Assembly (NCBI GenBank): GCA_964597895.1
Contig: CAZQZS010000002.1
Location: 3,914 to 67,913 of the forward strand
Direction: 5' to 3'
DNA length: 64,000 bases
Source: an uncultured Candidatus Saccharibacteria bacterium
GTDB taxonomy: Bacteria; Patescibacteriota; Doudnabacteria; UBA920
Every line of letters starts with the position of its first letter. The stretch's first letter is position 1. Below, in pieces: positions 1,053 through 13,999 of the stretch. The position numbers were made by a program, and so were the translations under genes. Under the pieces are notes generated by a model that was given only the letters and a program-made list of their open reading frames with translations, ran no database searches and was not told the DNA's origin.

Positions 1053-3062
1053 ATGCGCAACATTTTAACTAACCGTCGTTTTGGCTTAGTTGGAACCTTG
1101 TTTGCTGTTGTAGCTGTGAGTATGGTGTTAGCTCTGATTCCTCAGGCTACTGCCAAGATTAACGCAGAAAACTGTGTTAACCCTCCTACAACTCCTACTT
1201 TGAACCACTGGCCAATTACTTATGACGACGAAAATACTCCGCTGTGTCATGATTTTCGTGCCATTGACGCAGCCCGTTATGTTGCTAATCAGGATTTAGA
1301 ATTTTCTCAAAATGAGACTGATTGGCAGAACGGTTTGAGTTTGGATGTTGGTCAAGAAGGTATCGCCTTGATTTATGTTCACAACGGTGCTGCCAATAAC
1401 CTTCCTGCAGAGCAAACTACTGCTCGCAACGTGAGGATTCAGACCACTACCGAAACCAACACCGGTTCAACACATCGTATCTCCGTCCGTATGGCCGGTG
1501 ATAACACCAACACTGTAACTGAAAGCTTTACTGTGCACACTCCAAGTGATGCTAAGTTACAAGTTATCAGCAACAGTGGTGTAATGTACGATTACGAAGG
1601 TAATCGCCTCCCAGGTTACGAAAACCTGGACTTAGGTAACTCTACCTATACTTTAGGTGACTTGGACGCATGTTTTGAATATAGTCTGTTCTTGGCTTAC
1701 AAATTCAAAGTTGTCCAAGGCGACGTTGATGACGAAGACACCTCTTTGTCTATCGAAAAGGAAGTTCGTAACCTTACCAACGACGGCCGTTTTTCTAGCT
1801 CAACTGATGCTGAAGAAGGCGATCGCGTTGAATATCGTGTAGTTGTGCGCAACACCGGCGACGAAGTTGCCCGTGATGTGCGCGTTACCGATAATGGTGT
1901 GTCTGGTATTTCAATTGAACGTTCTTCAATTGATATAGATATCAATGATAACTTGTGGCAGGGTGATTTCCCTGGCACCATCAATCTTGGTGACATGGAT
2001 CCTGGTGAACGAATCACCATCACTTATGAAGCTCGGGTAACCGAAGATGACTGCCGTACTCTAACCAACACTGCTTCTGCAGTAGCTGATAACGCTTCCC
2101 GCGTATCTGATTCCGCTGCTGTCCGTATTGAAGGTTGTGATAACGATGACGACCGCGATATTGAAATTCGTAAGCAGGTTCGTAACTTAGATGAAGGTTC
2201 ATCTAGCTTCCGCGATCAGGTTGATGCCCGCACTGGTGAAGATGTAGAGTTCCGCATCACTGTGTCTAACTCTGGTGATGCTACTGTTCAAGACGTAGTC
2301 ATGACTGACGTGATTCCATCTGGACTTCGTTTCACCGACAACGTAGAAGTTGACGGCGATTATGAAGATATCGAATTCCGCAACCGTACTTTGACTGTAG
2401 AATTAGGTGATCTTCGCGAAGGTGAAGATGTAACCATTGAATTTACTGCTGAAGTTATTGAAGATGACCGCACTACTGTGTGTAACGAAGCTTCTGCAAC
2501 TGGTGATGATGTTAGTCGTGTAGAAGATGAAGCTTGTGTACGTATTACAACCACTACCAAGCCGGGTACTCCTAATATTACCCAGTCTAAACGCGCATAT
2601 AATGACACCAAGAAAGTTGACGCGACTTCTGTACATGCAGATCGTGGTAATGTGATCACTTTCACCTTAACCACCACCAATACTGGTTCTGCTGATTACA
2701 ATAACTATGTAATCCGCGACGATTTGTCTGGGGTACTGCCATTGGCCGAAATTATTGACCTTGGCGGCGGCCGTTTGGATGGCAACACCTTAGTGTTCCC
2801 AGCCGTAGACATTGATCGTGGTGAAACTGTTACAAAGACCTTCAAGGTCCGCGTAAAATCTTCTTTGGCTCCAACTTTGTCATACCAGATTAAGAATACC
2901 TATGGTAACACCGTTACCATCACAATTCCTGGTAACATCGTTTACGAAGCGCCAAAGACTGGTGCCGCAGCTACTTCTGCTGCAGTATTCGCTGGATTAT
3001 TGACTGCTGGTGCAGTTGTAGTCCGCCGCGGTAAAGATATCTTTAACTTTATCTTTGCGTAA
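1053..3062 (+). CDS. large cell-surface protein with repeated DUF11-like domains and C-terminal sortase-type sorting signal
   Basis: N-terminal signal/TM; repeated '...RxxxDxxxGDxVxYxxxVxNTG...' modules; C-terminus 'APKTG' + hydrophobic stretch + 'RRGKD'. Confidence 0.7.
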   Translation: MRNILTNRRFGLVGTLFAVVAVSMVLALIPQATAKINAENCVNPPTTPTLNHWPITYDDENTPLCHDFRAIDAARYVANQDLEFSQNETDWQNGLSLDVGQEGIALIYVHNGAANNLPAEQTTARNVRIQTTTETNTGSTHRISVRMAGDNTNTVTESFTVHTPSDAKLQVISNSGVMYDYEGNRLPGYENLDLGNSTYTLGDLDACFEYSLFLAYKFKVVQGDVDDEDTSLSIEKEVRNLTNDGRFSSSTDAEEGDRVEYRVVVRNTGDEVARDVRVTDNGVSGISIERSSIDIDINDNLWQGDFPGTINLGDMDPGERITITYEARVTEDDCRTLTNTASAVADNASRVSDSAAVRIEGCDNDDDRDIEIRKQVRNLDEGSSSFRDQVDARTGEDVEFRITVSNSGDATVQDVVMTDVIPSGLRFTDNVEVDGDYEDIEFRNRTLTVELGDLREGEDVTIEFTAEVIEDDRTTVCNEASATGDDVSRVEDEACVRITTTTKPGTPNITQSKRAYNDTKKVDATSVHADRGNVITFTLTTTNTGSADYNNYVIRDDLSGVLPLAEIIDLGGGRLDGNTLVFPAVDIDRGETVTKTFKVRVKSSLAPTLSYQIKNTYGNTVTITIPGNIVYEAPKTGAAATSAAVFAGLLTAGAVVVRRGKDIFNFIFA

Positions 3063-3078
3063 CCTGTAATGGATTTAT

Positions 3079-3110
3079 AAAGGGGCCCATTCGGGCCCCT
3101 TTGAAGTTTC
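3079..3110 (+). terminator. rho-independent terminator after the surface-protein gene
   Basis: 'aaaggggccc attc gggcccctttg' hairpin followed by T-rich stretch. Confidence 0.6.
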
Positions 3111-3230
3111 AGGCCAGCAATTTGCCTATTTAACCGATTTGATTGATAGTTAAATTGCTTGTCTGAATTGACTGCCAGTTCTGCCACGTAAAAAGTAGCG
3201 AACTGATTACAACTACAAGGAGCGAAAACG

Positions 3231-3863
3231 ATGTCTTTAGGAACTGATACCGAAAAGAACACGTCTCGCTGTCCGACCAACAGGCAAATCGGTCACGTTA
3301 ACGACTTCCATACAGATATTCTGTCGAAGCGTTCGCGGCAAGATTTGGACACCCTCATCCAAAATGGCGGTGTTTACAAAGAAGCCTACGAGAAGATGGT
3401 TGGCGAGGTTCTCGGTCTATTAACGAACACCATCACCGTCAAGGTGAAGGTCAAGCGTGGTCAGACCCCCCAGCAAGTGCTGGACGGAACTGGCAGGGAG
3501 CAATACACGAACAAGGCGGTCGTCGCCTCAATGCCGCTATCTGACGGCGAAGGCGAAGAAGAAGTTGAGTTTGTTTTCTTCAAGGTTGGGCGCAGTTTGC
3601 CTGACAGTGAAGTGGAAGCGGAGCGCAGGAAGCGTGGCTTGGTGCAAGACCTTGCCGCACAGGCGCAATACAACGCCGACAATCCCGACTTTGCTACCGA
3701 CCATCCGAACGGCGATAGCTGGAAGGATGGAAACGGCAAGTGGTGCTACGCCTTTTTCCGCCGTTGGGGCGACGAGCGCGAGGTGGACGTTCGCTTCAGC
3801 GCCCTCGACTGGCGTGACTTCTACTGGTTCGGCGGTCGCAAGGTTAAGCCTTCGGTTTCTTGA
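3231..3863 (+). CDS. hypothetical protein A (210 aa), unrecognised family, GC-rich codon usage
   Basis: AAGGAG 8 nt upstream of ATG; long ORF in a locally GC-rich block; no motif I can assign. Confidence 0.6.
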   Translation: MSLGTDTEKNTSRCPTNRQIGHVNDFHTDILSKRSRQDLDTLIQNGGVYKEAYEKMVGEVLGLLTNTITVKVKVKRGQTPQQVLDGTGREQYTNKAVVASMPLSDGEGEEEVEFVFFKVGRSLPDSEVEAERRKRGLVQDLAAQAQYNADNPDFATDHPNGDSWKDGNGKWCYAFFRRWGDEREVDVRFSALDWRDFYWFGGRKVKPSVS

Positions 3864-3903
3864 ACCCTTTGCCCTCTTTGGCATTTGGTTTTTTGGACTT
3901 TTG

Positions 3904-3940
3904 GGGTCTCGCAGATTTTTTGCGAGACCTCTTTCTTTTT
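3904..3940 (+). terminator. rho-independent terminator between insert genes A and B
   Basis: 'ggtctcgca gattttt tgcgagacc' followed by ctttcttttt. Confidence 0.6.
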
Positions 3941-4094
3941 GTATGAGTTTAAAAAACACTCTTGCAACAAGGGTATTTTTATTGACTAAAGGTAGAATTT
4001 ATTATAAAATTATAAGTCTTTCTCTCTGAAAGAATCCTGACTGCGGATAGCAGTTGTAAAGAAGGCCGGGCAAGTAGCTTGGCTAGGAGGACTA

Positions 4095-5084
4095 ATGAAA
4101 CATTTACCTTTGAACGAAGCGTTGATGCCGGCTTGTATTTTAAAGGAACAGACACTGAAAGATTTTGTGAAGCAGGCTGGGCCAATCTCTTTGAAGTACG
4201 GCTATTTAACTTACGGCCAAATCGAAGCGGTTTTGAATAAAGTTTGTTCTGGAGATCAAACCATTTTGCAGGGATTGTTGAGAGGTGAGAAAGAGGTTAG
4301 AGTGGCAGATAGCTTAGCAAAGTTGTTTGACAAGCACGGTCGTCGCATTCCTCCTCGCACACTTACCGCTTCAGTCACGGACGCAAATCGCAACTATTTT
4401 CTGAAACACACGAAGCTCAACTACGCCGAGCGGCTTGCTCGCATCGTTGATTGCTTCGTCCTGAAAGAGGCGATTTCGGCGGACGAGTTTGAGAACCGTG
4501 CCGAGGCAATCTTGGAAGGTTTGCGGGTTGACGAAAAGACCCAACTCATCACCAACGGCGTTCATTTGCCGTTCTATCTGCCCCAGACACAGGTAGACGA
4601 CTATGGTCGGGTGTTGGACGAAGTGTTCCTGCCTGCCGTTGAGCGAAGCTACAAGGCAGAGTTTCTCAAGCGGAGTTTTTACAACTACCGCAAAGGAACT
4701 CTTGTAGGTCAGACCACTATCGTGGAAGGCTCTCGTCACGAACGGCTGGTGGAAGCGATGAGGCAAGGGGATGTTGTCGGGATTTACTTTCCGAACTGCT
4801 TGCAGGGCTTCAGCGTCCACGCCGACCTTGAGCAGATGGCGAGCCTGCCTAGCAAGTTTTTACTCGCTGGCGGTTTCGATGCTGCGGGAGCGATGGTGGC
4901 TTTTCCAGATGTATTAGCACGGGATAGCAAAACACCCTTGCTTGACCTTGCCGCAATGCAGTGGAAATCGTCTGCCTACTCGCTTTACTTCGGCGACTAC
5001 GACGGCTATCTCTCGTTCGACTGTAGGAGAGTCCTCGACACTGCCCGCGATGTCTACGCTGGTGGTCTCGTGGTTCTTGAGTAA
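4095..5084 (+). CDS. hypothetical protein B (329 aa), unrecognised family, GC-rich codon usage
   Basis: AGGAGG 5 nt upstream of ATG; own promoter-like TTGACT-N17-TAAAAT at ~3985..4013; no recognisable motif. Confidence 0.6.
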   Translation: MKHLPLNEALMPACILKEQTLKDFVKQAGPISLKYGYLTYGQIEAVLNKVCSGDQTILQGLLRGEKEVRVADSLAKLFDKHGRRIPPRTLTASVTDANRNYFLKHTKLNYAERLARIVDCFVLKEAISADEFENRAEAILEGLRVDEKTQLITNGVHLPFYLPQTQVDDYGRVLDEVFLPAVERSYKAEFLKRSFYNYRKGTLVGQTTIVEGSRHERLVEAMRQGDVVGIYFPNCLQGFSVHADLEQMASLPSKFLLAGGFDAAGAMVAFPDVLARDSKTPLLDLAAMQWKSSAYSLYFGDYDGYLSFDCRRVLDTARDVYAGGLVVLE

Positions 5085-5093
5085 AATTTACAT

Positions 5094-5127
5094 AACAGCA
5101 CAGTGAAAATTCACTGTGCTGTTTGAT
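5094..5127. terminator. bidirectional hairpin terminator between gene B and the wbaP-like gene
   Basis: 'aacagcacagtga aaat tcactgtgctgtt' perfect stem flanked by A/T runs. Confidence 0.6.
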
Positions 5128-6576
5128 TTAATAGTTGTCTTTGGGCTTCTTTTCCCAGAATAGAATCAGAAAACTTTTGGCCAGAATTTGAAAGTCTACC
5201 CACAGGCTCCAGTTCTCAATGTAATAAGTGTCTAGGCGAATTTCTTCTTCAAACGGAAGAGTTGGCCAAGAAGTCTGAGCGATTTGCGTGAAGCCAAAGA
5301 TTCCTGGCTTGATTGTTAACACGCGGCCGTTGGTTGCTTGGTATTGTTCAACCTGTTCCGGTAAGTGGGGGCGGGGGCCAACCATGCTCATGTCACCTTT
5401 GAGGACGTTCCAAAATTGTGGGATCTCATCTAGTTTAGTTCGCCTTAGGAATCGGCCCATTTTGGTTACTCTCGGATCGTCCTTGATTTTAAATAAGGGA
5501 CCATCTCGTTTTTCTTCGGCAGCTTGGATCAGTTCTTCCAGCAAAGCCTGCGCCTCCTCTTTGCCGTATTTATCACCAATACTTAAATGGGCGAACATGC
5601 TGCGGAATTTATAGAATTTAAACGGCCGTCCGTTTTGACCACAGCGTATTGAACTGTAAATAACTGGCCCCTTACTGTCTAATGTGATTGCCATGGCCAA
5701 GATCAGCATCAGTGGGGCAGTGAGAATTAAACAGATTACGCTTATTATGATATCTGCGATGCGTTTAATGAGTTTGCCCCAGCCGTCTAATGGAGTGTTC
5801 TTTAATCCGATTATCGGAATACCTTGGAGATTATTGAGTTCAATGATGTTTCGTTGTACCTCAAATAAGTTGGGGACGAATGAAAATTGCAGACCGTATT
5901 GTCGTGCGAACGCAACCAAGGCTAAATTATCTTGCGCGCTGGTGTTGTGGTTGGTTTGAACGATCTCATCAAATTTTTGCTCTTGGTAAAGCTTGCTTAG
6001 CGAATCAAGCACTTGCTGATTGTTAGATAGTTCGGCAACCACTGTATAACCATGTCGCGGGTCTTTGAGTAAGTCACGAATGACTTGCGCTTCGGTGCCG
6101 GACCCGTTGATTAGAGCTAGGCGGTGCAGTCCATAACCTTTGGCAAACATGGATTGCTGGACCAGCTTTAAGATTAGTCGGCCGGCTAGCACAAACACAA
6201 TGCTTAGTAACCAGACCGCTAGAATGATAAACCGGGATGGGAAGATAGACTGATCAAAGAAGAACAGAATTACTGTCAGAAACGCGGCCAGGCTCAGGCC
6301 AATACTGACTTTACTCCACTCAGTCCAAAGCCGGCGGGTACCTTTTAATGAGTACAAGCCAAGCAAGGCAAAAATCAGCAAAACAATCGGAGTGGCGCGA
6401 ATTAAGATTCCCAAAAAGTCGGGGAGTGATAATTCAAACAAAACTGGGCCCACCCAGCTGTCGGTCTGATAGCGGAGTTGATAAGCTACGATACCCGCGC
6501 CAATCAGAGCGAGGGTATCCAGCGGAATTGATAATAAATTAAAAAGAAGTTCTGATTTCTTCATATTTCTGAGCAT
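5128..6576 (-). CDS. undecaprenyl-phosphate sugar phosphotransferase (WbaP/CpsE-type bacterial sugar transferase); start uncertain (6564, 6576 or 6600)
   Basis: Multi-TM N-terminus, central linker, C-terminal '...KGPVIYSSIRCGQNGRPFKFYKFRSM...GPRP...' bacterial sugar transferase domain. Confidence 0.75.
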   Translation of the reverse strand: MLRNMKKSELLFNLLSIPLDTLALIGAGIVAYQLRYQTDSWVGPVLFELSLPDFLGILIRATPIVLLIFALLGLYSLKGTRRLWTEWSKVSIGLSLAAFLTVILFFFDQSIFPSRFIILAVWLLSIVFVLAGRLILKLVQQSMFAKGYGLHRLALINGSGTEAQVIRDLLKDPRHGYTVVAELSNNQQVLDSLSKLYQEQKFDEIVQTNHNTSAQDNLALVAFARQYGLQFSFVPNLFEVQRNIIELNNLQGIPIIGLKNTPLDGWGKLIKRIADIIISVICLILTAPLMLILAMAITLDSKGPVIYSSIRCGQNGRPFKFYKFRSMFAHLSIGDKYGKEEAQALLEELIQAAEEKRDGPLFKIKDDPRVTKMGRFLRRTKLDEIPQFWNVLKGDMSMVGPRPHLPEQVEQYQATNGRVLTIKPGIFGFTQIAQTSWPTLPFEEEIRLDTYYIENWSLWVDFQILAKSFLILFWEKKPKDNY

Positions 6577-6670
6577 ATTATAGCATTGCTGAGCCTGCAC
6601 TGCTACTTCCCAATTAGGCCGTCAGATGGTAAGATTTTAGGGATTATTGTGAAGATTTTAACTTATTTCA

Positions 6671-7702
6671 ATGAATAAAGTTGCAGTATTATTTGGCGGT
6701 GGAGGCTTTATTGGTTCATACTTAGCCGTAGAATTATTGGATCAAAATATCGTGGATGAAGTGCTGCTTGCCGACCTTCATTTCCAAGAACCACTATGGC
6801 CCAAGCGCCTGCACCAGCTGCGCGCAATGGGCAAGGTCGCGACTTGCAGTTTTGATGTGCGCAGGGATTCTGATTATCAGTTTTTACCTAAACAGGCAGA
6901 GCTGATTGTCAACCTAGCTGCCGTACACCGCGAGCCTGGTCATGCCGAGCACGAGTATTACGAAACTAACCTGCCGGGTGCAGAAAATATTTGTAATTGG
7001 GCAAACACCATCGATTGCAAACAATTAATTTTCACAAGCAGTATTGCGACTTACGGGGCTAATGAAGATTTGCATGTTGAAACCAAGACCGAAACAAGCA
7101 CTCCAAAACCCAATACTCCTTACGGCATCTCTAAGCTCAAAGCCGAAGCGATTCATAAACAGTGGCAGGAAGCTGAACCCGACCGCAGGTTATTGATTGT
7201 TCGGCCAGGCGTAATCTTTGGGGCAGGGGAGAACGGCAACGTCACGCGAATGCTTAAAGCGATTAAGCGCGGCTATTTTGTGTACACTGGAAATCAGGAC
7301 ACAGCCAAAGCCGGCGGTTACGTAAAGGAGCTAACCCGTTCGGTAGTGTGGATGTGGCAGAAGCAGCTTTCTAGCCAGAAGCCATTCTCTCTTTATAATT
7401 TTACGATGAATCCGACCCCGACAGTGGGTCAATTCGTTAAGGCAATTTCAGCTGTGCTCGGGAAGGACAAGCAGCCAATTAGTTTACCCTTTAACCTATT
7501 ATTGTTGATTGCGAAACTGTGGGAACTACCATTCAAATTAATCGGCAGGCAGACCAGCATTAACCCTGCTCGTATTCACAAGCTGCGCCGTTCCAACCAA
7601 ATTGCGGCCGAGGTTTTAGCTCAAGAGGGTTATCAATATCAGTATGATTTAGTTTCTGCGATGCGCGACTGGAAATCAGAGCGCGCCGAGGATTGGCAGT
7701 AA
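6671..7702 (+). CDS. NAD-dependent epimerase/dehydratase (SDR family)
   Basis: N-terminal 'LFGGGGFIGSYL' Rossmann motif; YxxxK 'YGISK'. Confidence 0.7.
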   Translation: MNKVAVLFGGGGFIGSYLAVELLDQNIVDEVLLADLHFQEPLWPKRLHQLRAMGKVATCSFDVRRDSDYQFLPKQAELIVNLAAVHREPGHAEHEYYETNLPGAENICNWANTIDCKQLIFTSSIATYGANEDLHVETKTETSTPKPNTPYGISKLKAEAIHKQWQEAEPDRRLLIVRPGVIFGAGENGNVTRMLKAIKRGYFVYTGNQDTAKAGGYVKELTRSVVWMWQKQLSSQKPFSLYNFTMNPTPTVGQFVKAISAVLGKDKQPISLPFNLLLLIAKLWELPFKLIGRQTSINPARIHKLRRSNQIAAEVLAQEGYQYQYDLVSAMRDWKSERAEDWQ

Positions 7703-8643
7703 TGAAGATTGTAGTTACGGGCGGCGCTGGTTACATAGGCAGTTATGTGTGCCGAGCTTTACTTAAAGCAGGGCATAAGCTGTGGGTGATTGATGATTTA
7801 TCAACCGGAAGGCAGGAAAATCTACCTGCTGAGGTTGATTTTTTTCTGGCTGATTTTGCTGATGAAAAATTATGGCAGCAGCTTTCTAGCAAGGATATTG
7901 ATGTAGTCATCCATTTGGCAGCGAAGATTGATGCGGCAGAATCAGTTGAGAAACCTGAATTATACTTGAGGGAAAATTCAGAAAAAACTCAGCAGTTGTT
8001 GAACATCCTTTCAGATTTTCCTATTGAAGGTGTCGTCTTTGCCTCAAGCGCAGCTGTTTATGGCGACGCTGAGCAAATCCCAACTCCAGAGACCGCTGAA
8101 TTAAAACCGCTCAATCCCTATGGTAAAAGCAAGGTTTTGGCTGAGCAAGCGCTTCAGGATTTCGCTAAAAGTGGTAAAAGGGCCATAGCTTTGCGATTTT
8201 TTAATGTTGCTGGAACTTTGCCCGAAATTGTAATTAGACCTCGTTTAGAAGCGGCTCTAATCACTGCCATCAAAAAGAGCTTAGAAAATCCTCAGGTTAG
8301 CTTAAAAGTTTTTGGGTCGGATTATCCTACCGCGGACGGGAGTTGTGAGCGCGACTTTGTGCATGTGGCAGATATTGCTCAAGCATTTGTTGCAGTAATA
8401 GAGAACTGGAGTAGTTTAAAAGAATTTGAAGCCATTAATATCGGAACTGGGCAGGCCCATTCGGTGTTGGAGGTTGTGTCTAGAGCGGAGGCTTTGTTAG
8501 GTAAAAGCATCAAGTTCCAAATCGTTGAACCGAGGGTAGATGAGATAGTTGTTTCAGCGGCGGATAATGCTAAAATGAAGCAGCTTCTCCAACTTCAGCT
8601 CAGGTATTCAGATTTAGATAACATACTCAAAACCAGCCTTTAG
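7693..8643 (+). CDS. galE: UDP-glucose 4-epimerase-like (GalE family)
   Basis: 'VTGGAGYIGSYV', 'YGKSK'; length typical for GalE; overlaps the upstream gene by 10 nt, suggesting an operon. Confidence 0.65.
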   Translation: MAVMKIVVTGGAGYIGSYVCRALLKAGHKLWVIDDLSTGRQENLPAEVDFFLADFADEKLWQQLSSKDIDVVIHLAAKIDAAESVEKPELYLRENSEKTQQLLNILSDFPIEGVVFASSAAVYGDAEQIPTPETAELKPLNPYGKSKVLAEQALQDFAKSGKRAIALRFFNVAGTLPEIVIRPRLEAALITAIKKSLENPQVSLKVFGSDYPTADGSCERDFVHVADIAQAFVAVIENWSSLKEFEAINIGTGQAHSVLEVVSRAEALLGKSIKFQIVEPRVDEIVVSAADNAKMKQLLQLQLRYSDLDNILKTSL

Positions 8644-8705
8644 GCTGGATTTTTGTTTGAGTTTGGGGTATACTTTTGCACACAACGAAATACTGGAGGA
8701 TTAAA

Positions 8706-9425
8706 ATGGCTACTACAGAAGTTGCTTCTAAAGCTTCCAAGCCAAAGAAGCCAAAGACACCCAGGCCCGGACTGACTGAAGCCGGGGTCATTCTAGGATT
8801 ATTTGAAACAGCGCATTTGCAGATTTGTGAGCAGTCAAGAGTGATCATTTATCCGCCGACACCGGCAAAGCTTCGACTGGCTCCACATTTGCAAAAACGA
8901 ATGGAACAGTTTCGCCTTTACCTTGAGTCAATCCCTGCCGAACGGTTCAGACAGCCATGGTTGAAGTTTCTTGGAGGAATGTCCATTTCCCACATTGATT
9001 CAAATGGTAATATCCATTTGGTCGCGTTGGATGATGGATTATTATCAAATGGCTTGCCATCCGTTGGTACCGACAATGGCGAAGTCGATTATAATATCCG
9101 TTCTCGATTCGTCAGCAATCAAGTATATGGACTTGATATCAGCAGCCAGCGATTCAAAGGGAAAATTCATTTACATGTCTTCAATGTGAAGGATCTCTAT
9201 TCGATGGCTAAGGCTCGTCCAGATGGAAGTGTCATCTTGGCGCTTCGGAGCATGATTGCCTTAGATCATGGCCCAAGCGGGAATTATATGAACAATTCCG
9301 GTTTTAAACCATTTTGTTGGCGGACACGGTGTAAGCTTGGTGCGTCGATGAAACAGCACAAGATGCTGGTCACACCTGACGCTTCGTGGTTTCAGGAACA
9401 AATGCCAAAATGGCTAGCTTCGTAG
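8706..9425 (+). CDS. hypothetical protein with Lys/Pro-rich N-terminal tail
   Basis: GGAGG upstream of the ATG at 8706; N-terminus 'MATTEVASKASKPKKPKTPRPG'; flanked by terminators. Confidence 0.5.
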   Translation: MATTEVASKASKPKKPKTPRPGLTEAGVILGLFETAHLQICEQSRVIIYPPTPAKLRLAPHLQKRMEQFRLYLESIPAERFRQPWLKFLGGMSISHIDSNGNIHLVALDDGLLSNGLPSVGTDNGEVDYNIRSRFVSNQVYGLDISSQRFKGKIHLHVFNVKDLYSMAKARPDGSVILALRSMIALDHGPSGNYMNNSGFKPFCWRTRCKLGASMKQHKMLVTPDASWFQEQMPKWLAS

Positions 9426-10928: not shown

Positions 10929-11663
10929 ATGTTGAAAGCAAAAACGAAACGAAAATTAAGGAAGGGAACTAGGGTAGTTACCAAGTTAGTTGAGGCTACT
11001 GGCATTCCCCATGGCTACTCCACAACTGTAGCCTGGTTTGCGGAGCGAATGATGCTCGCTAGTTTTACTTTGATAGTATTATCATTTGCCGCAGGCGCAA
11101 TGTTTGTCTTAAAATTAGCTGAACCGATTGGGGACAGCCGGGCCTATGATGCAGCCGCCCAGCAGGCTTTGCAGGCCGAACAGGGAGTAAAAGTCTTTAC
11201 CCAGCAAGTAATTGATGTGGCTTCACCAGTGTTCGCAGCGTTTGTAAAAGAAAATCGAGACCAAGAAGATTTGGCTGCGACGGAGCTCGCGGCACGCAAA
11301 CAAAAGCTTCAGGCTTACCTAGCAAGCAAAAAATCACCCTTTGCTGAAGACCCTGCAGCAATTGAAGCTTTCGCTACATCCAAGAACATGAAAATGATGG
11401 TGGCGATCTCTTTTGTGGAAAGCACTTTCGGCAAGAATTGTTATTACTACAACTGTAGTGGTATCGGCGGCACGCCACCAAAACTCCGTAAGTATGATAG
11501 TTATGCGGAATGGATTCGCGACTTTGATGATTTGCTGGAGCGGAGATATAAAGATCTGCCGCCAGAAGAGTTTGTTGGGCTTTACGTACAGCCGGGCAGC
11601 CCGAATTGGATTTACGGCGTAAAGCAAGTGCTCCGCGAATTTGAAGAGCAAGGCATTACATAA
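10929..11663 (+). CDS. hypothetical membrane-anchored protein (possible glucosaminidase-like C-terminal domain, weak)
   Basis: N-terminal TM 'LASFTLIVLSFAAGAMFVL'; C-terminal 'FVESTFGKN...YNCSGIGG' only loosely reminiscent of glucosaminidase domains. Confidence 0.4.
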   Translation: MLKAKTKRKLRKGTRVVTKLVEATGIPHGYSTTVAWFAERMMLASFTLIVLSFAAGAMFVLKLAEPIGDSRAYDAAAQQALQAEQGVKVFTQQVIDVASPVFAAFVKENRDQEDLAATELAARKQKLQAYLASKKSPFAEDPAAIEAFATSKNMKMMVAISFVESTFGKNCYYYNCSGIGGTPPKLRKYDSYAEWIRDFDDLLERRYKDLPPEEFVGLYVQPGSPNWIYGVKQVLREFEEQGIT

Positions 11664-11666
11664 AAA

Positions 11667-11694
11667 AGAAGCCCCCAATATCCGGGGGCTTTTC
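11667..11694. terminator. bidirectional terminator
   Basis: 'agcccccaatatccgggggcttttc'. Confidence 0.6.
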
Positions 11695-12492
11695 TTAAAG
11701 CTTAATGCTCTTGGCTAGGCCAAGCAGCGACAGAAATCTAATCATTATCCAACTTGGATCAATTTGATACCAGGCAAGGCCGTGTCTAGCTCTGGTAGGT
11801 TTGGCGTGGTGGTTATTGTGCCAGCCTTCACCCCAAGTAAGTAGGGCTACCCACCAATTGTTCTTTGAGTCATCGTCAGTATTAAACATGCGCGAGCCAA
11901 AGCGGTGACAGACCGAGTTCACCAGCCAAGTAAACTGAAGTCCGACTGCAACCGGGACAAAAATTCCCCACAGTACGAGCGGTAAGCCGCCGATGAAAAA
12001 GAAAATCAACGCTAGAAAGGTACTCGGCAACCACCAGTATTTGTTAAAAAATCTATGGAAGTTGTCGCGGTATAAATCTAGTGCGTACTTTTGGGAGAAC
12101 TCACGAGTATGGATAGAGTCGTCGGTTTGAATCATCCATAGCAGGTGTGAACGCCAGAACCCGTCTCTGGGACTATGGGGGTCGCCCTTGCGGTCGGTAT
12201 CTTGGTGGTGTTTGCGATGAATCGCCACCCACTTGATGTGCCCTCCTTGCAAAGTCAGCAGACCGCACCAGGTTATAAAATATTCAAGCCATACTGGCGT
12301 GGTAAAGCCCCTGTGCGTTAACAGTCTGTGATATCCAACAGCCAAGCCTAATCCATGGCTCAGCATCCAAACCACCACTGCTACCAAAAGCAGTGTTGGA
12401 GTAAAATAAAATAACGCCCCGATGGCACCTACTGTAAATAACAGCATCGCCGTCAAAGTGTCATAGCGAAACTTGTAGTTTTCCGTGGTCAT
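11695..12492 (-). CDS. membrane fatty-acid (acyl-lipid/acyl-CoA Delta9-type) desaturase
   Basis: Three histidine boxes 'HRLLTH', 'HRKHH', 'HNNHH' with TM helices. Confidence 0.7.
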   Translation of the reverse strand: MTTENYKFRYDTLTAMLLFTVGAIGALFYFTPTLLLVAVVVWMLSHGLGLAVGYHRLLTHRGFTTPVWLEYFITWCGLLTLQGGHIKWVAIHRKHHQDTDRKGDPHSPRDGFWRSHLLWMIQTDDSIHTREFSQKYALDLYRDNFHRFFNKYWWLPSTFLALIFFFIGGLPLVLWGIFVPVAVGLQFTWLVNSVCHRFGSRMFNTDDDSKNNWWVALLTWGEGWHNNHHAKPTRARHGLAWYQIDPSWIMIRFLSLLGLAKSIKL

Positions 12493-12583
12493 AAATCCTC
12501 CTGCAATCTCAAACTGGCTATATTATCGCACAATTTAATAAATCTCAAAAGCACCCAAAAGACTCCTTTTCTAAAATCCATAC

Positions 12584-12612
12584 CACCAAAAAACTCCGAA
12601 CTAATCGGAGTC
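12584..12612 (-). terminator. terminator for the Shedu-like gene (minus strand)
   Basis: 'ctccga actaa tcggag' hairpin with T-run on the minus strand. Confidence 0.5.
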
Positions 12613-12742
12613 TTTTGTTGGTAGCCCGAGACTAGCAACCACTCGAACGAAGTTCGCTTTAGTAAGCCAGTTGTTGGAATACTTTAAGACTGAGACCAGA
12701 AATAATGATATGGATTTGGCGGAGTGATATCGATGATGAAAC

Positions 12743-13999
12743 TTATGACCTAAATATAGAAAGAATAGTCTTAATTTTCTCATGTAGTTCGTCAAATGTG
12801 ACAACTTCGACATCTTTATTGTTATTCCGAAATAGCTCAAAAGATTTTACCTGTTGTTCGGTAAGATCTGTGATCTTACCGACTATAACGAAGCATTTTG
12901 AGTTGAATGAAGTAAAAGTTTTATCTTTACTAAGACTGTAGAATTCCTTCTGCAAGTTATCCCGTTGATCCAGTGCTTGGTTGATTGCTCCGCTAAGTTC
13001 TTTTGAAACTGCAAATACGTCGTTTCCTCGATAAGGCTGATTTTCCAACAGTTTTTTCTTATGAGTTTTGATTTCGACTATTGCAACATTCTCCGAAAAA
13101 TGATTTTTATATATGAAATCGGCAACTTTTCCACCCGCGTCGTCAATCGTTTTGCCTCCGACGTATGCTTTGTCCTTCAATAGAACCATCGGAAAAGCGA
13201 AAAGCTGGCTGAAAATCCAACTATTCTGCTTAAAGAAACTGTGCCATTTCTCTTCTAAAGTAGAGGTGTCTGTCAGCTGACTAATAAGGATTTCGAACTC
13301 TTCCAAAATGGTTTCAATGTAAACAAGGTCAATGACCTCTTTAGCCGAACTGAGCTGTTTCCGACGAATTTCAGTATCTTGTTGGTTAAAAGTAGAGATT
13401 ATTTTCAATAAGGCATTTGTGTCAGCATCGGAAAGTAAATCCGGGACTAATTCGTGTTCATTTATTATTCTGCCAAGCTGGCCTGGAACATACTTCTTAT
13501 TCGAAATCTTGATTTTCGCCGGGAACCATCCAGAGAAGATTTTTCGAGCCGCAAACTTTACATCACTCTTATATTGCAGAGACAACGGGTTTAGATACTG
13601 GTATGCAGCTTCCATATCGGCTCTTTTGAAAGTTGCAACGGAACCTCGAATACTAGTGTTTTGTTCGGATGAAACAACGATCTTAGAAACATCCGGGAAA
13701 ACGTCTTCTAGGAAATAAATGAGGGGATTCAAAATAGAAGTAAATCCGTAGCCGGATGCCCAGGACTTTCGGAAACCATGAGGAAGATGGAAAGGCATTT
13801 TGTGGTATTCGATTGATTTGATTTTTTCATACTTTTGCAGGCCGAGGCGCCGATCAAATGGATAATGAATTACTCGTGAATTATCCTTATAGACTTCACG
13901 AGATTTGAAATTGAATCCATTATCACCATCAATGAAGTGGTAAACTTCTTTTGTTGCTGATTCGCGCACTAATATTTCTTCTGGGTATGAATTGGGCAT
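12743..13999 (-). CDS. Shedu/DUF4263-like PD-(D/E)xK nuclease-family protein (defence candidate)
   Basis: C-terminal half 'GGKVADFIYKNHFSENVAIVEIKTHKK...YRGNDVFAVSKELSGAINQALDQ' has the D...EIK restriction-endonuclease-like core; overall size/arrangement recalls SduA; sits in an AT-rich block beside a tRNA. Confidence 0.45.
   Translation of the reverse strand: MPNSYPEEILVRESATKEVYHFIDGDNGFNFKSREVYKDNSRVIHYPFDRRLGLQKYEKIKSIEYHKMPFHLPHGFRKSWASGYGFTSILNPLIYFLEDVFPDVSKIVVSSEQNTSIRGSVATFKRADMEAAYQYLNPLSLQYKSDVKFAARKIFSGWFPAKIKISNKKYVPGQLGRIINEHELVPDLLSDADTNALLKIISTFNQQDTEIRRKQLSSAKEVIDLVYIETILEEFEILISQLTDTSTLEEKWHSFFKQNSWIFSQLFAFPMVLLKDKAYVGGKTIDDAGGKVADFIYKNHFSENVAIVEIKTHKKKLLENQPYRGNDVFAVSKELSGAINQALDQRDNLQKEFYSLSKDKTFTSFNSKCFVIVGKITDLTEQQVKSFELFRNNNKDVEVVTFDELHEKIKTILSIFRS

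Follow-up and report, generated by a model that had tools for sequence, protein, structure and literature searches.

Two unrelated diversity-generating retroelement variable-protein genes at a Saccharibacteria locus, one probably a live remote target and the other probably frozen

We analyzed a 64-kb window (the whole stretch of DNA considered here, out of a 155-kb contig, CAZQZS010000002.1, from an uncultured Candidatus Saccharibacteria bacterium) and focused on two adjacent open reading frames (ORFs) on the + strand, gene A (3231..3863, 210 amino acids) and gene B (4095..5084, 329 amino acids). A preliminary description placed both ORFs at these coordinates, which we confirm, could assign neither protein to a family, and proposed a horizontally acquired pair forming an undescribed accessory system. 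The genes are instead of a known kind: they are two diversity-generating retroelement (DGR) variable-protein genes, from two families specific to the Candidate Phyla Radiation (CPR). The two are unrelated; A is probably a live target that is served from a distance, and B is probably frozen.

Gene A belongs to a family in which the signs of a DGR are clear. For protein A we found 33 close homologues, with 80-90% identity over residues 1-170; their last ~35 residues are hypervariable at scattered positions (NGKWCYAxFxRWxxERxVxVxFSxxDWxxxxWFGGRKV). Variable columns in the alignment hold residues of NNY codons only, and contigs with these genes often stop just past the gene. Scattered hypervariability of the C-terminus and contigs that end after the gene are together typical of a DGR variable region (VR). 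A scan of species-representative genomes gave 28 A-family loci, mostly from Saccharibacteria, Paceibacterota and other Patescibacteria. At 14 of the 28, an imperfect copy of the gene 3' end (93-112 nucleotides, nt) lies 350-450 nt downstream. Mismatches between VR and this template repeat (TR) fall at adenines of the downstream copy in 184 of 220 cases across the 14 loci, mostly in AAC codons. The TR is followed by a gene of ~100 amino acids on the opposite strand and then by one of ~330 amino acids. The former encodes bAvd (best NCBIfam match NF033474, DGR Avd, below the curated cut-off of that model) and the latter an RVT_1 reverse transcriptase (RT); RT and Avd follow in 11-13 of the 14 TR-bearing loci. 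This order of target, TR, Avd (opposite strand) and RT is the canonical DGR cassette. Adenine bias in the VR/TR pairs of relatives, the property on which a DGR reading stands or falls, was tested and is present. A profile search extended the family to at least 1082 members, every one of which is annotated as hypothetical, and ~11 of the 28 loci are stand-alone, with no cassette.

At one A-family locus (L012; loci and contigs used for comparison carry L numbers), an A-type cassette has its TR separated from Avd by an insertion of ~2.4 kb (11021-13509), and a short second Avd-like fragment is found at 11046-11111. Some A-family contigs were found in metagenome-assembled genomes labelled Gammaproteobacteria, Methanoregula, Methanosarcinales and Terracidiphilus (L010, L019, L020 and L024), and one of these contigs has a complete cassette. 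Mis-binning of contigs from Patescibacteria is the probable explanation. No relatives of the A or B family were found on the viral contigs of IMG/VR, and a phage origin of the two genes was ruled out on that basis.

The B family has 632 representatives at 50% identity, and its alignment shows a hypervariable C-terminal pattern like that of the A family (QWQSxxxSLxFxAxDDxLxFxxxxxLGxAxxxYSGGLxVLG). We examined 74 genes from metagenomes. An adenine-biased TR accompanies 37 of them; TR adenines account for 591 of the 634 mismatches, and Avd and RT are nearly always alongside. Of 55 genes that could be evaluated, 18 have no cassette in at least 2.5 kb of sequence downstream. At L034 (6910-9105), whose gene has 77% identity to B, a single TR serves two B-family genes in tandem, 17 of 18 mismatches are at TR adenines, and bAvd and RVT_1 genes adjoin. 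Alignment of A-family and B-family profiles with hhalign detected no relationship. Judged by these sequence comparisons, the B family is a second DGR target family, unrelated to the A family. Both are large, Patescibacteria-specific families of DGR variable proteins. A different shared arrangement occurs at L053 (916-4863), where one TR is flanked by the two B-family genes that it serves (14/14 and 12/12 mismatches at adenines).

In the window, the VR of gene A (VR-A, 3745..3841, +) covers codons ~172-204. Compared with the TR of the L006 cassette, VR-A has mismatches at 16 of 27 adenine positions and at 1 of 70 others (Fisher p = 2e-10), the "TR-adenine positions" being set by this TR from another organism. 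The 97-nt A-type TR sequence is GCTACGCCTATTTCAACCGTTGGAACGACGAGCGCAAGGTGAACGTTAACTTCAGCGACAACGACTGGAATGACAACTATTGGTTCGGCGGTCGCAAC. Third-codon identity of VR-A with L006 and with L007 (a Saccharibacteria contig in synteny with the window, at ~90% identity) is 94-97%, versus 72-73% in the gene body. The 3' end of VR-A (3825..3845, +) resembles an initiation of mutagenic homing (IMH) site; it reads TGGTTCGGCGGTCGCAA and then GGTT, and matches the VRs of cassette loci. VR-A ends in ...GGTCGCAAGGTT and the TR in ...GGTCGCAACTTT (in the TR, …GCAA and then CTTT), so that the last bases differ. VR ends are identical in the window, L007, L006 and L001, as seen in a codon-level alignment of the first three with the L006 TR and in a further alignment.

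An untranslated element (3864..3931, +) follows the stop codon of A. A T/G-rich "TTGG" tract (3864-3902) comes first, followed by a T-run hairpin (3903-3931) that a terminator scan also recovered. The window, L007, L006 and L001 all retain the element, and in L006 the stem shows compensatory changes. The element serves as a terminator and may, in addition, be a cis element for homing. A small hairpin directly after the IMH of A is no better than those in shuffled sequences. TTGG occurs at 4.4 per 100 nt in the 100 nt after the stop codon of targets in B-type cassettes (background 0.7), and at 1.6 in A-type cassettes (background 0.5). Four such repeats follow A in the window and none is adjacent to B; they also occur at L034 (9105-9185) and at many of the loci L041-L120. 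A TTGG-rich tract after the target gene may be a cis element of CPR DGRs.

Gene A, with ~120 nt upstream and ~90 nt downstream, forms a discrete block (the "A module", 3107..3950, +) that recurs at 84-95% identity in otherwise unrelated contexts, including the L006/L123 cassette. By blastn it is 84% identical to L006 9891-10717, where TR, Avd and RT follow, and 87% identical to L001 9885-10708, on a contig that ends at the hairpin. The 829-bp A-module block (94.6% identity) is all that L006 and L007 have in common. The A-type cassettes closest to the window's A are on AT-rich contigs (GC 0.37), at L006 6974-9787 and L123 806-7775. Their neighbours encode an N6_N4 methylase, a 937-amino-acid ResIII helicase, a second RT of 710 amino acids, a phage-type integrase and an NYN nuclease, a setting that suggests a mobile restriction-modification island.

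Comparison of closely related strains, made on consensus assemblies (Logan contigs), indicates that A is still being rewritten. The 5.1-kb contig L121 is syntenic with window positions 2358-7503, belongs to a strain-level relative (flanks 1-2% divergent), and encodes the only other member of both the A and the B clusters at 90% identity. Divergence between window and L121 is 1.4% at the 3' end of the upstream DUF11 gene, 1.2% in the intergenic region, 3.7% in the body of A, 18.6% (18/97) in VR-A, 0.8% downstream of VR-A, 0.5% in the body of B, 0.8% (1/124) in the VR of B, and 2.0% in the WbaP-like gene. The 18 differences in VR-A compare with 2.3% elsewhere (p = 3e-11), and 15 of them are at TR-adenine positions. 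In a second strain pair, L124 and L125, the flanks are 98.6-99.0% identical and VR-A is 76% identical.

The unmutated scaffold of the VR also points to a cassette. The TR alleles of the cassettes in L006 and L123 differ at five non-adenine positions, and each stand-alone VR bears one or the other five-base set; L124 and L125 bear different sets. The window's VR-A has only one non-adenine mismatch to the L006 allele. A precedent for action in trans comes from a Paceibacterota contig in which a single TR matches both the adjacent VR and the VR of a second A-family gene ~26.5 kb away (17/17 and 16/19 mismatches at adenines, respectively). The strain differences in VR-A, its third-codon conservation, the TR-allele scaffolds and this precedent together indicate that gene A is rewritten in trans from the TR of a cassette and is a remote DGR target.

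A and B might instead both be orphaned relics, the differences in VR-A stemming from past DGR activity and from recombination of pre-existing alleles. Neither TR nor Avd nor RT is present in the 64 kb, and the frequency of stand-alone family members given above fits such a reading. So do the divergence of the A body, which exceeds that of the flanks (3.7% vs ~1.3%), and the mosaic relationship of window and L007; both imply that recombination is active. However, we consider this explanation unlikely. Differences are concentrated 8-fold in the VR and lie on TR-adenine positions, between strains with only 1-2% flank divergence, and the L124/L125 pair repeats the pattern. Moreover, the non-adenine scaffold of VR-A stays within one mismatch of one of the cassette TR alleles, against ~27% divergence at synonymous sites in the rest of the gene, and the IMH-like end and 3' element of A are intact.

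The window itself holds no cassette. Relaxed blastn and a repeat finder detected no copy of 3180-5127, nor of either VR (that is, no TR), elsewhere in the 64 kb. Searching the window by tblastn with two CPR DGR RTs and Avds gave no hit, and a motif scan found no ORF for a YxDD-type RT. The syntenic contig L007 likewise lacks TR, RT and Avd.

Several points weigh against a live remote A and a frozen B. The cognate TR and RT were not seen in a search that covered 64 kb of the 155-kb contig, and the TR-adenine positions of VR-A are defined by a foreign TR, that of the L006 cassette. The strain comparisons reflect consensus assemblies rather than read-level polymorphism, and recombination-driven exchange of alleles could bring in VR differences made elsewhere; the elevated divergence of the A body between strains counts here too. 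As for B, the stasis of its VR is seen between two very close strains and is no proof of loss of function, and for a possible C-type lectin fold of the protein Foldseek gives faint hits only.

In gene B, the former variable region (VR-B, 4961..5082, +) retains the DGR signature. Compared with the TR of L034, it has mismatches at 18 of 31 adenine positions and at 13 of 91 others (p = 5e-6). VR-B differs from that of L121 at only one of 124 positions, and the protein sequence of the VR is identical. Third-codon identity in VR-B equals that of the B gene body, with no excess conservation, and homology to the cassette-borne gene of L034 ends at the stop codon, the TTGG-rich 3' flank being missing. 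We conclude that B is probably an orphaned relic with a frozen VR. Its intact ORF, which retains all scaffold residues conserved in the family, and the adenine bias of VR-B relative to the L034 TR would equally suit an active B. In that case both genes would be active remote targets, with both cassette types, or one RT with two TRs, located outside the window, and B would be unchanged by chance; the relatedness of the RTs of A-type and B-type cassettes is in keeping with this. It is nevertheless quite improbable, given that VR-A changed at 18 of 97 positions over the same interval, that third-codon positions of VR-B drift like the rest of the gene, and that the 3' flank has been lost.

The history of the locus separates A from B. 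The gene order LexA-DUF11-A-WbaP-epimerase is kept without B in L124-L126, in which the flanks are 68-75% identical to the window. Thus, A is an old resident, and 3845-5119, essentially B, is a later insertion. Gene B, too, has a mosaic make-up. The first ~190 nt are lineage-specific, with host-like GC, 99% identity to L007 and 51% identity to L034; the GC-rich block (4284-5083) is 89% identical to L007 and 89-91% identical to the cassette-borne gene of the unrelated L034, and so is about equally distant from both.

These observations also bear on the proposal of the preliminary description that A and B cooperate in an accessory system of a new kind, gained horizontally as two genes and devoted to defence, toxin/immunity or surface modification. 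The genes are adjacent in the window, L007 and L121, L001 has a B-like gene 1.4 kb away from its A gene, and both genes combine atypical composition with the lack of a match to any curated family. Yet none of the 80 B-family loci carries an A-family gene within 6 kb, most A-family loci are without B, and this very locus exists with A alone, which speaks against a functional pair, a single insert or regular co-occurrence. The profiles of A and B are unrelated, and a DGR cassette of its own accounts for either family, so that the system is not undescribed. We found no enzyme signature of defence, toxin/immunity or surface modification, PADLOC and toxin signatures included, and the unusual GC content is family-wide. 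A cooperating two-gene system is thus highly improbable.

Other elements of the preliminary description were borne out: A and B are compositionally odd accessory genes, separately transcribed, and neither matches a curated profile in Pfam, NCBIfam, PADLOC or PHROGs (no hit at E <= 1 in the Pfam, NCBIfam and PADLOC searches). Among the 52 ORFs of at least 150 amino acids in the window, A and B rank first and second in GC content at third-codon positions (GC3; 0.654 and 0.579; mean 0.450, standard deviation 0.056), above the neighbouring DUF11 gene (0.378) and WbaP-like gene (0.493). In 400-nt windows GC peaks at 0.578, versus 0.442 for the window as a whole. For B, compositional distinctness holds only from ~4284 on, the first ~190 nt being host-like.

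GC-richness extends well beyond this locus. Target genes exceed their surroundings in GC at 27 of 27 A-family loci (by 13.5 points on average) and at 8 of 8 B-family loci (by 9.4). In complete cassettes (L006, L008, L011, L012, L014, L017, L021, L022, L030 and L034) mean GC falls from 56% in the target to 41% in Avd and 40% in the RT, and is 45% over the remainder of the locus. The excess sits mainly at third-codon positions. Simple depletion of adenine was ruled out as its source, as the AT skew of A is positive. GC-richness is therefore a family-wide mark of target genes, not of Avd or RT, and is not specific to this locus; we found no description of it in the two published DGR surveys that were searched for it. 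The preliminary description took it as a sign of horizontal acquisition. It is weak evidence for recent acquisition here, because A is old at the locus (present in relatives with flanks only 68-75% identical) and the enrichment is family-wide. The difference in GC between target and Avd/RT is a small but consistent regularity.

We offer one extension tentatively, leaning somewhat against it. Gene A may be a core, receptor-like gene that a Saccharibacteria clade keeps at a fixed locus, next to genes for a sortase-anchored surface protein and for envelope glycans, and that is hypermutated in trans by a cassette on a separate, mobile, AT-rich restriction-modification island, and the GC3 signature of targets (35/35 loci) may come from an undescribed process acting on whole target genes, such as biased gene conversion. 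If a core gene were indeed paired with a mobile cassette, strains with 99%-identical flanks would carry VR scaffolds of different TR alleles. If the GC3 signature is specific to targets, it could serve as a marker for orphan or remote targets.

Taken with established DGR biology, the likely course of events at this locus would be as follows. RNA of the TR would be reverse-transcribed with errors at adenines only, and the resulting cDNA would replace the 3'-terminal VR of the target. About a dozen residues would in this way be randomised on the binding face of a domain with a C-type lectin fold. Gene A would be rewritten in trans from an A-type cassette in another part of the genome, comparable to that of the restriction-modification island of L006/L123. 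Gene B would have been inserted later beside A, its TR, Avd, RT and 3' flank lost and its VR frozen, and it may now encode a binding protein of fixed specificity or be heading for decay.

The AlphaFold model of protein A (predicted local distance difference test score, pLDDT, 90.1) has an N-terminal three-helix segment (residues 17-65) and a predicted C-type-lectin-fold domain (67-204), on which VR-A is displayed. Protein B was modelled with AlphaFold 2 (AF2) at pLDDT 92.4, and its only Foldseek matches, to the Bd2740 domain (8oks) and to TaqVP, are faint. Foldseek against the PDB with the AlphaFold models, a structure search of the kind suggested in the preliminary description, returned nothing significant for A or B. 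We identified no signal peptide or transmembrane (TM) segment in either protein.

Shine-Dalgarno sequences are present before the start codons of A (AAGGAG) and B (AGGAGG), and hairpins occur at 3079-3110, 3903-3931 and 5094-5123, all as previously described. The hairpin at 3079-3110 is perfect and GC-rich, as read from the sequence. That at 5094..5123 has a 13-bp stem and a 4-nt loop (DNA fold -14.8 kcal/mol, z = -5.3 vs shuffles); it lies between the convergent B and WbaP-like genes and is probably a bidirectional terminator. Promoters had been proposed for both genes. A consensus scan supports one promoter-like site before B (TTGACT-17-TAAAAT, 3982..4010, +, 10/12 positions) and none before A, and the site is weak, the count of such sites being no higher than in shuffled sequences. 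An Rfam search of 2900-5300 gave sub-threshold chance matches, e.g., suhB at 28 bits versus a gathering score of 41.

Upstream of A is a gene for a DUF11-repeat surface protein (1053..3062, +), and downstream of B, on the minus strand, a WbaP-like sugar transferase is encoded (5128..6600). At its N-terminus the DUF11/CLIPPER-repeat protein carries a signal or TM segment, and it ends in APKTG, a hydrophobic stretch and RRGK; on sequence, this end looks like a sortase-type cell-wall anchor. The position of the DUF11/CLIPPER-repeat gene directly before A is conserved in six contigs. Further along the window, a 249-amino-acid ORF (8676-9425, +) has no Pfam hit, and window/L007 identity falls to 42-61% across 8601-9400, between flanks of >90%. 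Either the gene was replaced or its evolution is very rapid. In the epimerase gene (6897-7189), a dense cluster of window/L121 differences lies amid sequence that is 98-99% identical, and the window/L007 identity profile is similarly patchy. These patterns imply frequent recombination tracts in the lineage.

Targets of CPR DGRs were reportedly first described by Paul et al. in 2017. DGRs are abundant in the Candidate Phyla Radiation, and their targets there have no recognisable domains, signal peptide or TM segment (PMC8144416). The A and B families closely resemble the targets of the cellular "DGR clade 2" of the CPR (Roux et al., 2021, PMC8144416). Shared features are Patescibacteria hosts, short targets with a C-terminal VR, the lack of a recognisable domain, TM segment or signal peptide, the target-TR-Avd-RT layout, adenine-specific mismatches, and the absence of relatives on viral contigs. 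In contrast to clade 2, A and B of the window stand alone without TR, Avd and RT.

Remote or non-adjacent targets are known, such as the TvpA paralogues of Treponema denticola, and DGR targets were surveyed by Wu et al. (2018, PMC5758913). As in those cases, a distant VR carries adenine-only differences and one TR can serve several targets (here at L021/L026, L034 and L053). Unlike there, a Saccharibacteria clade has the remote copy at a conserved chromosomal locus, the cassette copy of relatives is on an AT-rich restriction-modification island, and the cognate TR was not seen here. Also, the CPR DGRs of the Wu et al. survey mostly have single, adjacent targets (PMC5758913). Mtd of the Bordetella phage BPP-1 (PMC2408619, PMC3240598), the prototype of DGR variable proteins, is similar in having a C-type lectin fold with a C-terminal VR, AAY-type TR codons, and an IMH at the 3' end of the VR that is unlike the TR end. 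However, there is no sequence similarity, Mtd is a phage tail-fibre protein whereas the protein here is cellular, and no strong hairpin occurs right after the IMH, the nearest being 62 nt downstream and terminator-like. Sequence identity to the C-terminal domain of Bdellovibrio bacteriovorus Bd2740 (PDB 8oks) and to animal C-type lectin domains is 2-13%, a likeness in fold only, with no shared function implied.

Stand-alone members of DGR target families are common, with about a third to a half of the examined copies lacking an adjacent cassette, and they include both live remote targets and frozen relics. Cassette-centred DGR surveys state explicitly that stand-alone targets escape them (PMC8144416). 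With the present analysis, two unknown genes become interpretable as encoding hypervariable, putatively lectin-fold binding proteins of an episymbiotic bacterium. Gene A is evidently still diversified, and its product is thus a candidate for host or phage recognition.

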